A DNA stretch of 64,000 bases from Candidatus Zixiibacteriota bacterium (GTDB taxonomy: Bacteria; Zixibacteria; MSB-5A5; GN15; FEB-12). A program made the position numbers and the translations under genes. How positions within the stretch are numbered: the stretch's first letter is position 1; the number at the start of each line of letters is the position of its first letter. The notes under the pieces were generated by a model. The model worked only from the letters and a program-made list of their open reading frames with translations. It searched no databases and had not been told where the DNA came from. Positions 37,156 to 49,834 of the stretch are shown in pieces. Location: positions 3,226,007-3,290,006 of the forward strand of contig CP070674.1 of the NCBI GenBank assembly GCA_020351995.1. Reading direction: 5' to 3'.

Positions 37156-37195
37156 AAAAAAAAGCCCCGCACCGGGGGAGGGGAACGGCGCGGGG
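37156..37195 (-). terminator. Minus-strand intrinsic terminator with no annotated minus-strand gene
   Basis: On minus: CCCCGCGCCG-TTCCCCTCCCC-CGGTGCGGGG then C-T8. The stem mismatch is G-U only on the minus strand. Confidence 0.65.
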
Positions 37196-37300
37196 TGATC
37201 AAGACGTCACTGATGATAGATCATGTGCTCATTGATCCGGACGTCCTGTACTTATTTTTCTAGCCCAAACGTACGTGGCTAAGATATAGTTCGGTAATCT
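37156..37300 (-). ncRNA. Candidate small RNA (about 145 nt)
   Basis: Minus-strand TTGATT-N17-TAATAT at 37335-37307; stem CAGGACGTC/GACGTCTTG; terminator with C-rich loop. Confidence 0.4.
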
Positions 37301-37442
37301 CAAAACATATTAAAAAAGTTGAATCGAAAAATCAAGACTAAATCACACCTGAAACCAATTTTCATACGCGTTCTCCCACAACAATCGTGTCGGCATCATC
37401 TCAGGTAGCACAATCCCACCGTCGATGGTAAAGGCTACTTTC

Positions 37443-47430: not shown

Positions 47431-48273
47431 TCAATTAGCCAGTTGCCCAGACAGGTCGGCCAGCAGTGAATCAATTTTGAACTCGGGGCCCACAAGGTCC
47501 TTCAGGCTCATGTAGAGCTGATAGGCTTCCTGTTTCTTGGCCCGGTCATCCTGGCCAATTAACGCATTGGCCAGCTTGTACTTATTGATTATTGAGGGGT
47601 CTTCCTCGTACAGTGGGCGGAGAATCTTTTCAGCCTGAGCAAACTCGCCTTTATCCGTCAGGAGCATCCCTTTAGCCGACAAGAACTGCGGAAGCGGGCC
47701 GAATTTCGCAAGAGCGGTGTCAACAGTGTTCTCTGAGACATGCAGCGAGTCGATGTTATAAGCCAGGATGGCCAACTGATAATATCGCTCGGGGTTGTCG
47801 GGATCCATCTTCAAGAGCTCTCGGGCGTGAATGAAGGCGACTATGTTGTTTCCCATTTTCACATTCAGGTCGGCCAGGCGCTCGCGATAATTTTCTATCG
47901 GATCGCCGGTAAGGACCAGCACCATAATGGCTTTGATAGCGAAGTCCCACTCATTTAGTTGGGCCGCGATGGGATAAAGGGTCTCGTTGATTTCTCGGTC
48001 GTTGGGGTGAAGCAAATCGGCCCGCTTCAAATAAAACAGGGCCGAATCCAGGAAAAACTCTCGCTGATAGCTCATTCCAAGATAGTAGAGTACGTCGCGG
48101 TCAGAGGACTTCATGCTCGCAGCCTTACCAAGGTAATCGCGAGCTCTAGCATAGTCTTCGTCTTCGTAAGCTTTTTTGCCAGCCTCCTCGTATTCGGCGA
48201 GCGTACTCGGCCCACTACAACCGGTAACAAGAATTATCAAGGGTATGAGCAGCAACACGTGTTTTAGCATCAT
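47431..48273 (-). CDS. Tetratricopeptide-repeat lipoprotein
   Basis: LVTGC lipobox; TPR-like helices (ARDYL.KA, ALFYL.RA..L.P, A.KIL..LYE.DP). Confidence 0.8.
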   Translation of the reverse strand: MMLKHVLLLIPLIILVTGCSGPSTLAEYEEAGKKAYEDEDYARARDYLGKAASMKSSDRDVLYYLGMSYQREFFLDSALFYLKRADLLHPNDREINETLYPIAAQLNEWDFAIKAIMVLVLTGDPIENYRERLADLNVKMGNNIVAFIHARELLKMDPDNPERYYQLAILAYNIDSLHVSENTVDTALAKFGPLPQFLSAKGMLLTDKGEFAQAEKILRPLYEEDPSIINKYKLANALIGQDDRAKKQEAYQLYMSLKDLVGPEFKIDSLLADLSGQLAN

Positions 48274-48534
48274 TATAACCTTCTGTTGAAATTTGTGGCT
48301 CTAAGTTAAAGCAATTGGGGCAATAATTCAAGACCGTTATACAAGGCTAGCCGGGTGCCAGATCGACACCCGTTTTACCGCGTGTATCCTTGAAAACCGG
48401 CCATTTTCCGGGCGATGACATCCACATAAAGTCTCAGTGGTCCTCTCAAGTCCTTCAATCTTGATACTTCGCTCGCTATCCGGCAGTATCCGAAAATAGC
48501 GTTCAAATAATTTTACTCCAGCCCTACAATCTGG

Positions 48535-48563
48535 TTGACACAATATTTCACAAAAACTATCTT
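48535..48563 (+). promoter_or_regulatory. Sigma70 promoter
   Basis: TTGACA-N17-TATCTT; predicted +1 near 48570. Confidence 0.7.
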
Positions 48564-48569
48564 CCCGGC

Positions 48570-48811
48570 AGAGGTTGCGAGGTCACACATCATTTGAAAT
48601 TACTAACTTGCGACTCAAACCGAGAGTGTTGTCAGTCGTAATCTATCAGATTTCACCGGAACGATACCGGTCAAAAACTTTGGCCGACTGGCAGCGGAAG
48701 GCCGCGATGATTCGGCCTGTACGATCGAGGTTACCCAAGTAGCCGAAGCATCTTAAATTTGTATTTTTATCTAACAGCCGTCCCCGGCCTTCCGGGGGTG
48801 GCTGTTTTTTT
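48570..48811 (+). ncRNA. Candidate structured ncRNA or riboswitch-like leader (about 240 nt), family unrecognised
   Basis: Flanked by a promoter and a strong terminator; at least five complementary stems; no long ORF. Confidence 0.55.
48773..48811 (+). terminator. Intrinsic terminator 120 nt upstream of the EamA gene
   Basis: AACAGCC-GT-CCCCGG-CCTT-CCGGGG-GT-GGCTGTT-TTTTT. Confidence 0.85.
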
Positions 48812-48931
48812 CAGGCAGGAACCGTGATGTCGCTTGGAATCCCGGTCGGAGTATGGTAGATTTATCGCCTGTTAGATTTACGTTCATAACCAAAATTAGA
48901 GGCCGTAGCAGGACCCGGACCCGCTGTCCAG

Positions 48932-49834
48932 ATGAATATCACAACAATTCCATACCTCGGTCAGTCTCTTGCCCTGATTACGGCAATAGTATGGGCCATC
49001 GCTGTCATCCTGTTCAAGAAAAGCGGCGAATCCGTCCACCCGGTGGCCCTGAATCTGTTTAAGAACCTGGTTGCGGTAGCCCTATTTCTGCCAACGCTGT
49101 GGCTCTACGAGAAATTCATCATGTGGCCGGCACCCTGGCAGGATTATCTTCTTCTGCTGGCGAGCGGAGCTCTGGGAATCGGCATTGCCGACACCCTTTT
49201 TTTCCATTGCCTGAATCGGCTTGGTGCAGGCTTGACCGCTATAGTTGATTGCTTTTACAGCCCCTTCATCATCGGTCTTTCCATGTTCTGGCTGGGCGAA
49301 GTGCTATCGTCGCTTCAGGTGCTCGGTGTGGTATTAATTATCTCGGCGGTGCTTACGGCCACTTATGAGGGTCGAACCGATCCCCTTGACCGCAAGAATC
49401 TCATTATCGGAGTAACCCTCGGAATAATCTCGCTGGCCCTGATGGCCCTCGGGATAGTAATGATTAAACCGTTGTTGAATCGCTCGCCTCTTCTGTGGGT
49501 TACGGAGACCCGCCTCGTCGGGGGCGTGGCGGTTCTGCTTCTGATACTCGCTTTTAATCGGCGGCGAAAAAGTATCCTGCATTCACTGCGATCTTCCACG
49601 GGGAGGGTTTATACGCTGACCGGTTCGGTAATTGGAGGTTATCTGGCTATGCTACTCTGGCTGGCGGGAATGAAATTCACCCAGGTTTCCACAGCAGCGG
49701 CCCTGAATCAGACCACGAATATCTTTATTTTTATCTTTGCCGCCGTATTCTTGAAAGAAAAGATCAATTTGCAGCGCACGGTCGGGATAATACTGGCCAT
49801 AATAGGGGCTATGTTAGTAACCTTCGCCCAGTAA
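48932..49834 (+). CDS. EamA/DMT-family transporter
   Basis: About 10 TMs in two repeats; G..LAL..A..WA, Q..G...I..G patterns. Confidence 0.9.
   Translation: MNITTIPYLGQSLALITAIVWAIAVILFKKSGESVHPVALNLFKNLVAVALFLPTLWLYEKFIMWPAPWQDYLLLLASGALGIGIADTLFFHCLNRLGAGLTAIVDCFYSPFIIGLSMFWLGEVLSSLQVLGVVLIISAVLTATYEGRTDPLDRKNLIIGVTLGIISLALMALGIVMIKPLLNRSPLLWVTETRLVGGVAVLLLILAFNRRRKSILHSLRSSTGRVYTLTGSVIGGYLAMLLWLAGMKFTQVSTAAALNQTTNIFIFIFAAVFLKEKINLQRTVGIILAIIGAMLVTFAQ

Follow-up and report, generated by a model that had tools for sequence, protein, structure and literature searches.

A candidate small RNA gene, lineage-restricted and structured, probably born from the tail of a T9SS-cargo gene in Zixibacteria

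In Enterobacteria, several trans-acting sRNAs, including CpxQ, SroC, DapZ, and MicL, are derived from 3′ UTRs. The RNA described here is like them in that the presumably functional sequence directly precedes a coding gene's Rho-independent terminator and makes use of it, and in that the homologous block in a neighbouring genus (g35) is a 3′ UTR that begins right after a stop codon; however, in the present case the parent gene is lost, the tail has its own near-consensus promoter and a new structured 5′ domain of ~130 nt, and the genome has no Hfq detectable by tblastn. Terminating riboswitches in front of EamA/DMT exporters provide another comparison, as they share with our locus a conserved fold, covarying helices, a terminator, and an EamA gene on the same strand. 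Unlike these riboswitches, the locus keeps a promoter for the gene after the terminator, presents no conserved alternative pairing and no Rfam aptamer match, is confined to one small clade, and has a 3′ part derived from a coding gene. Orphan lineage-specific structured ncRNA motifs, such as Chlorobi-1 and Bacteroidales-1, have been described in the FCB group; they too are promoter-to-terminator units with compensatory changes, with no functional class, from poorly studied lineages, but they show no sequence or model similarity to our RNA, for which an origin from a gene tail can be traced. To our knowledge, Zixibacteria is a phylum without cultured members or described regulatory RNAs. Finally, species-specific sRNAs of E. 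coli and Salmonella, born de novo or by rearrangement, have been characterized as young and weakly conserved (Raghavan et al. 2015; PMC4350180). Our RNA resembles those sRNAs in being lineage-restricted, in its source (intergenic DNA remodelled through rearrangement or the loss of a gene), and in its σ70 promoter; it differs in the strong purifying selection seen over two genera, in being far more structured, and in carrying ex-coding sequence in one of its helices (H4, below).

The window, i.e., the whole stretch of 64,000 nucleotides that was analysed, contains a 658-nt intergenic gap (48274–48931) between a TPR-lipoprotein gene (47431–48273, minus strand) and a divergently oriented EamA/DMT transporter ORF of 300 aa (48932–49834, plus strand). 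EamA is followed by dprA, an IMPACT/YigZ gene, and a pfkB kinase gene; Pfam PF00892 and the same neighbours are recorded for EamA on homologous contigs. The features of the gap are given below; column identities were computed across the 14 homologous copies that have flanks.

48535–48563, plus strand: promoter of the RNA (promoter scan, 10/12), with −35 TTGACA (48535–40, identity 0.98), a 17-nt spacer (identity 0.47), and −10 TATCTT (48558–63, identity 0.94)
48564–48569, plus strand: six bases from the −10 hexamer to the start, identity 0.52
48570–48608, plus strand: predicted 5′ end (A48570) and conserved 5′ block, column identity 0.84
48571–48578, plus strand: 5′ strand of H1 (GAGGU-GC), pairing with 48748–48754 (GC-AUCUU) and closing the folded domain (RNAalifold/CM consensus)
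48600–48604, plus strand: 5′ strand of H2, pairing with 48718–48722; 4/5 pairs changed on both sides
48626–48697, plus strand: H3, a long hairpin; 11/12 pairs with compensatory double changes
Middle of the RNA, plus strand: variable, identity 0.55–0.69
48698–48811, plus strand: segment that nhmmer and alignment A5 trace back to the 3′ end of a T9SS-cargo gene now lost (~15 final codons, 3′ UTR, and terminator)
48700–48717, plus strand: H4, a GC hairpin GGCCG/CGGCC (48700–04/48713–17); 4/7 pairs with double changes
48725–48773, plus strand: conserved 3′ block, column identity 0.91
48729–48744, plus strand: H5, hairpin GGUUAC-CCAA-GUAGCC (48729–34/48739–44), invariant and compatible with pairing
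48773–48811, plus strand: intrinsic terminator of the RNA (terminator scan), with a 15-bp stem (10 GC), loop CUUC, and U7; identity 0.80
48834–48862, plus strand: putative EamA promoter (conserved footprint), with −35 TTGGAA (48834–39), a 17-nt spacer, and −10 TAGATT (48857–62)
Flanking intergenic DNA: identity 0.42–0.54

We consider it fairly probable that positions 48570–48811 of the plus strand represent an independent gene encoding a structured non-coding RNA of ~240 nt, with a strong predicted σ70-type promoter and an intrinsic terminator, which would act in trans. Among the properties expected of a trans-acting sRNA, a predicted promoter of its own, a Rho-independent terminator, absence of coding capacity, and conservation were found at this locus. 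The 5′ end at A48570 was placed from promoter geometry, and it is exactly at this base that identity rises from 0.52 to 0.84; conservation thus begins at the predicted transcription start. The 5′ block has the consensus AGAGGUUGCGAGGUCAYWCAUC..UGAAAUURCUAAC, which includes two GAGGU motifs, while the 3′ block consists of the H5 hairpin, GAAGCAUCUU (which contains the 3′ strand of H1, 48748–54), and the A/U-rich linker AAAUUUGUAUUUUUAUCUA; its core, ACCYAAGNAGCCGRAGCAWCUU, is retained in the two most divergent copies as well as in the 3′ UTR of the g35 gene. As far as column identity can tell, the shape of conservation is that of an RNA gene under purifying selection. No plus-strand frame is open throughout the copies, as stops occur in all frames and at differing places; a 55-aa ORF is interrupted by stops in homologues, and the minus strand holds nothing beyond a 6-codon ORF (MLRLLG*) without a Shine–Dalgarno sequence. 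An earlier note on this DNA, made from the sequence alone, had pointed out a tiny ORF, MIRPVRSRLPK; this reading frame also contains stops in homologues, which does not agree with a leader-peptide attenuator.

A 247-nt plus-strand RNA was predicted to fold with an MFE of −83.3 kcal/mol (z = −3.27), and none of 200 shuffled sequences folded as well. In alignment A4, which comprises 15 homologues and was fitted to the model structure, 90.9% of pair cells were paired, as compared to 30–48% when partners were slid by 1–3 columns; changes on both sides were observed at 24 of 48 pairs, with 0/500 shuffles reaching the observed values, although the clade is narrow and some of these covariation counts are therefore inherited rather than independent events. 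Covariation among homologues had been proposed in the earlier note as a check, and it shows three helices and the terminator keeping their pairing through compensatory changes. The best supported helix is H3, with the stem GTTGTCAGTCG/CGACTGGCAGC (48628–38/48685–95) around a variable apex (48639–84) and 92.5% of cells paired. H2 has 80.6% of cells paired and is weak in the window genome, with three good pairs; in the terminator, 96% of cells are paired and double changes occur at five of the 11 modelled pairs. The U–G pairs of H3 and of the terminator would be A–C mismatches on the minus strand, and fit the plus strand only. H1 comprises 7 bp, followed by a 55-nt tail, with 90% of cells paired; its strands are nearly invariant, so that they are compatible with pairing but offer no covariation test, and a second GAGGU at 48580–84 could replace its 5′ strand. 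The H5 stem and CCAA loop are invariant in 13/15 copies; the hairpin is disrupted in the two copies that diverge most, although these retain ACCCAAG.AGCCGAAGCA as primary sequence. In the resulting model, H1 would join the 5′ end to the 3′ block and enclose H2, H3, and H4, the 3′ side would continue with the invariant H5, the A/U-rich linker, and the terminator, and the covarying helices would provide scaffold and stability.

All the stems that the earlier note had picked out in the window were recovered, and its other elements too, including the promoter TTGACA-N17-TATCTT, whose hexamers are conserved, the stem at 48628–48695 (now H3), the AGGCCG/CGGCCT stem (H4 as modelled here), the nearly invariant GGTTAC/GTAGCC stem (H5), and the 15-bp terminator with T7, from which the EamA ATG is 120 nt distant. 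A further stem that it had placed at the beginning of the RNA (48573–81/48607–15) can be formed in the genome, but only 62% of its cells are paired among homologues, a value reached by 449/500 shuffles; likewise, the apical pairings AATCT/AGATT and ACCGG/CCGGT are present in the genome but have 42% of cells paired among homologues. The mutually exclusive hairpins suggested as a switch did not hold up, since the alternative GGTCAAA/TTTGGCC sits in the same unconserved apex and no conserved switch is therefore found there.

Homologues were searched for with BLAST and with covariance model R1, built from the first four copies, and yielded 15 distinct full-length copies (60–263 bits with R1), from six genomes of two closely related Zixibacteria genera and from nine metagenome contigs; these 15 sequences constitute alignments A3 and A4. 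All five genomes of the genus carry a full-length copy, as does G073, a close relative filed by GTDB under another genus. A phylum-wide search of 285 genomes from 130 genera found nothing else above terminator-only scores, which places the RNA in 2/130 genera. The nine contig copies (77–200 bits) were obtained through contigs whose EamA is 67–89% identical to that of the window, and each lies directly upstream of EamA-dprA-IMPACT-pfkB; a contig with a 65%-identical EamA has ffh upstream and no copy of the RNA. Pattern scans of metagenomes gave no g1-type match and one additional g35-type contig. In 14/15 copies the RNA is located directly upstream of EamA, on the same strand. The remaining copy, in G003 (L012, C1:1297608–1300886), is intact, but behind it come a masked stretch of ~98 nt and then a TetR-family gene, and the best EamA match is ~460 kb distant from the RNA; the near-identical G073 (L013) has an EamA-like gene after the RNA, and the contrast reflects a rearrangement or else the assemblies, G003 being 80% complete.

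The surroundings of the RNA are more variable. In most relatives, the TPR-lipoprotein gene and the RNA are separated by a same-strand gene for a GT87-family membrane glycosyltransferase of ~420–440 aa (loci L082, L083, L086, L011, L009, and L014 were compared with window positions 47431–48534); G000, L081, L087, and the G003/G073 pair lack this gene and have the TPR gene right beside the RNA region. The 260 nt of additional non-coding DNA between the start of the TPR gene and the RNA promoter (48274–48534) include two weaker promoter-like sites (48363–90 and 48502–30), as well as a sub-threshold snoR66 match (48368–48442; 24.6 bits against a gathering score of 43), which in a bacterium is almost certainly due to chance. 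Elsewhere in the window, a second orphan promoter-to-terminator unit, also flagged in the earlier note, is located at 37156–37335 (minus strand); its terminator loop is C-rich (UUCCCCUCCCCC) and anti-Shine–Dalgarno-like. The present RNA, with its three GAGGU motifs, would match this loop over 4–5 nt only, which does not suggest specific pairing.

Comparisons with known families were negative. At the gathering threshold, Rfam 15 identified only two tRNAs elsewhere in the window; at E ≤ 10, matches in the RNA region were limited to chance matches outside the RNA, and 12 homologous loci searched at E ≤ 5 gave no consistent match. ARAGORN reported nothing on the RNA, and RF00013, the 6S RNA model, had no match in any of the five genomes belonging to the genus. 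A CsrA sponge of the CsrB/RsmZ type was rejected, as the repeats are GAGGU rather than GGA and the GGA occurrences of G000 are, on inspection, unconserved in A3.

The origin of the 3′ part could be traced through weak model matches in genus g35 (G045–47), which lie directly upstream of the EamA orthologue. These matches correspond to the 3′ end of a gene whose 1428-aa product combines dockerin-like repeats with a T9SS C-terminal domain (CTD) and ends in ...DAGQYTASRKMLLLK*. An nhmmer search with the g1 profile against the g35 loci gave E values of 3e-7 to 3e-5, with the alignment starting from about H4; alignment A5 is collinear from there through the stop codon, CCGAAGCAWCUU, (G)UAUCU.U, the terminator, and the EamA promoter to the EamA start. 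The former gene end (..KM.L.K-stop) has its stop at 48740–42, and in G001 and G002 the RNA can still be read in the gene frame as KMRLPK-stop, matching the KM.L.K-stop pattern with which CTDs end. H4 takes the place of the codons GAT GCC GGT CAG TAC ACC GC. (..D-A-G-Q-Y-T-A-S..) and is collinear with GATGCCGGTCAGTACACCGC of the g35 gene, while H5 spans the former Leu-Leu-Lys-stop, and the terminator of the RNA is orthologous to that of the g35 CTD gene. On this alignment, the 3′ ~110 nt of the RNA are the remains of a T9SS-cargo gene tail (last ~15 codons, 3′ UTR, and terminator). Because the order CTD gene, terminator, EamA is also present in a third genus (G058), the coding arrangement is ancestral and the RNA derived. 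In G000 we found no orthologue of the 1428-aa protein, only generic CTD matches; at least 30 genes of G000 (e.g., C1:3517554–3517919 and 1203354–1203641) end in a T9SS C-terminal sorting domain that is 44–58% identical to that of the g35 protein, which indicates a large T9SS cargo repertoire. The H5/stop-codon motif occurs nowhere else in the genome and is thus not a general signal of CTD genes. The block AAG.A.CCGAAGCA.CUU is retained between genera whose EamA proteins are ~60% identical, next to intergenic DNA that is randomised, and was probably already functional as a 3′ UTR before the RNA came into being.

The 5′ ~130 nt presented no significant similarity to the g35 gene, as the promoter consensus alone aligns with the 5′ region of that gene (scores of 6.1, 5.6, and 1.4, with 1/900 shuffles reaching 6.1); an internal deletion may thus possibly have joined the promoter to the tail. 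A likeness of the 5′ block to the 5′ UTR of the g35 gene was considered and rejected as not significant. The g35 CTD gene itself has a near-consensus promoter, TTGACA-N17-TATCGT (L069 1–171, L075, and L076), and a 5′ UTR of ~135 nt with a block, GAAATCGATCACATCTGAAA, that is conserved in two of three species and may represent a leader element of its own.

The location in front of a transporter gene raises the question of a cis-acting leader (riboswitch or attenuator), in which a ligand-sensing fold would set terminator read-through into EamA-dprA, beside the EamA promoter. The same-strand position directly upstream of EamA in 14/15 copies, and the succession of conserved core, covarying helices, and terminator, which resembles that of terminator-type riboswitches, are both consistent with such a leader; nevertheless, we regard it as very unlikely, since several lines of evidence point the other way. 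Downstream of the terminator, a putative EamA promoter of the σ70 type is conserved: at a distance of ~25 nt from the U-tract, all 14 flanked copies present the consensus CTTGG(A/C)A, a 17-nt unconserved spacer, and TAnnTT (identity 0.88 for the −35, 0.44 for the spacer, and 0.85 for the −10, with 17-nt spacing in 14/14 copies), and g35 has TTGTCC-N17-TAGATT at the equivalent place. Moreover, terminator and EamA promoter are also found in g35, there behind an ordinary protein-coding gene which they serve, and thus pre-date the RNA. The candidate alternative hairpins are unconserved, the arms of the terminator vary while the preceding block is invariant, so that no covarying antiterminator is apparent (by inspection, no conserved antiterminator partner was seen for the variable terminator arm), no Rfam aptamer matched, and the G003 copy has no EamA behind it. 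A terminator-type riboswitch was rejected on the features that could be tested, i.e., the separate promoter after the terminator and the lack of conserved exclusivity between terminator and antiterminator. To judge from these footprints, EamA does not need the RNA as a leader, and the RNA probably has a free-standing regulatory role rather than that of a switch for the adjacent transporter. The earlier note had offered two readings: that of a standalone structured RNA agrees with the conserved promoter, the start-aligned conservation, the covarying helices, the absence of an ORF, and the absence of an Rfam match, while that of a ligand- or ribosome-controlled attenuator of the transporter is at odds with EamA's own promoter, the pre-existing terminator, and the unconserved hairpins and ORF. 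The note had also stated that a promoter of EamA's own after the terminator, with no read-through, would count against its proposal; the promoter half of this was observed, as the footprint conserved in 14/14 copies.

As a free-standing RNA, it would act in trans and not on EamA. The likely interaction surface would be the near-invariant, terminator-proximal ACCYAAGNAGCCGRAGCAWCUU...GUAUCUUUAUU, a sequence that would already have been conserved ancestrally as a 3′ UTR, and the GAGGU block at the 5′ end; this surface would pair with other RNAs, probably helped by RRM- or KH-type proteins of an Hfq-less genome. In tblastn searches, in part with generic consensus queries, Hfq was not found in the genome, while three RRM proteins, a KhpA-like protein, and CsrA were. 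Conserved unpaired stretches exist in the RNA, and genome scans with them gave chance-level or intragenic complementarity only: exact complementary k-mers in the genome were at chance level, a duplex scan of 18,927 candidate start regions returned ~10,000 matches, the best for the 3′ block lying inside an NtrC-type regulator gene, and pairing of CCGAAGCA(U/A)CUU with AAG(A/U)UGCUUCGG start contexts pointed to no convincing gene start. Long invariant blocks in junctions and internal loops, flanked by covarying helices, are no less typical of an RNA that binds a ligand or a protein than of an sRNA that acts by base pairing. A structured RNA that binds protein, as part of an RNP or as a sponge, with the internal loops, H5, and the three GAGGU motifs as recognition sites, is a serious rival, because the conserved blocks, at 39 and 49 nt, are longer than usual seeds and because H5 is invariant in 13/15 copies although compensatory changes would be tolerable; the variable helices flanking conserved junctions and the RRM, KH, and CsrA proteins encoded in the genome also fit it. 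We hold this role to be possible but unlikely, as the locus has no linked partner gene, inspection of A3 shows no conservation of GGA motifs of the CsrA type, and the two most divergent copies, with H5 broken and its sequence kept, fit single-strand recognition. A genus-age ligand- or protein-binding RNA (riboswitch-like or RNP), combining a new 5′ domain with a dead T9SS-cargo tail and possibly modulating EamA-dprA read-through, is distinctly unlikely. The 3′ third of the RNA is demonstrably a gene remnant, and the genome scans found no complementarity target, as might be expected of a non-functional relic, i.e., what is left of the deleted T9SS-cargo gene, in decay and with a promoter that arose by chance; however, blocks at 0.84–0.91 and hexamers at 0.94–0.98 beside neutral-looking spacers at 0.42–0.54, in copies whose EamA is only 67–89% identical, and compensatory changes maintaining four helices make decay highly improbable. 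Even less credible is a divergent 6S-like RNA sequestering RNA polymerase, with H1 as closing stem, an internal-loop bubble, and H2–H3 as terminal arm. The layout loosely recalls stem, bubble, and stem, and RF00013 has no match in the five genomes, but the closing helix has 7 bp, a 55-nt tail with the terminator lies behind it, no 6S family matched even at E ≤ 10, and a distribution over 2/130 genera and an origin partly from a gene tail contrast with 6S RNA, which is ancient; a 6S RNA proper was rejected on the same features.

The RNA is thus probably, as far as comparative sequence analysis goes, a new, lineage-restricted, stand-alone structured RNA and a candidate sRNA that arose from the tail of a gene. 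Zixibacteria thereby gain an RNA family with good support, namely 15 copies, covariation, and the footprint of a promoter, and the locus cautions that a folded promoter-to-terminator RNA in front of a transporter gene need not be a riboswitch. It also represents an unusually clear case of the birth of a structured sRNA gene, because the intact parent gene still occupies the same place in the neighbouring genus, so that its codons, stop, 3′ UTR, and terminator can be aligned base by base with H4, H5, the conserved block, and the terminator of the RNA. If the conserved blocks form a binding core, the locus would represent a newborn riboswitch-like or RNP RNA, with H4 sculpted from former codons. 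That the 3′ UTR block is common to the g35 gene and the RNA suggests that regulation by this sequence may have existed before the parent gene was lost.
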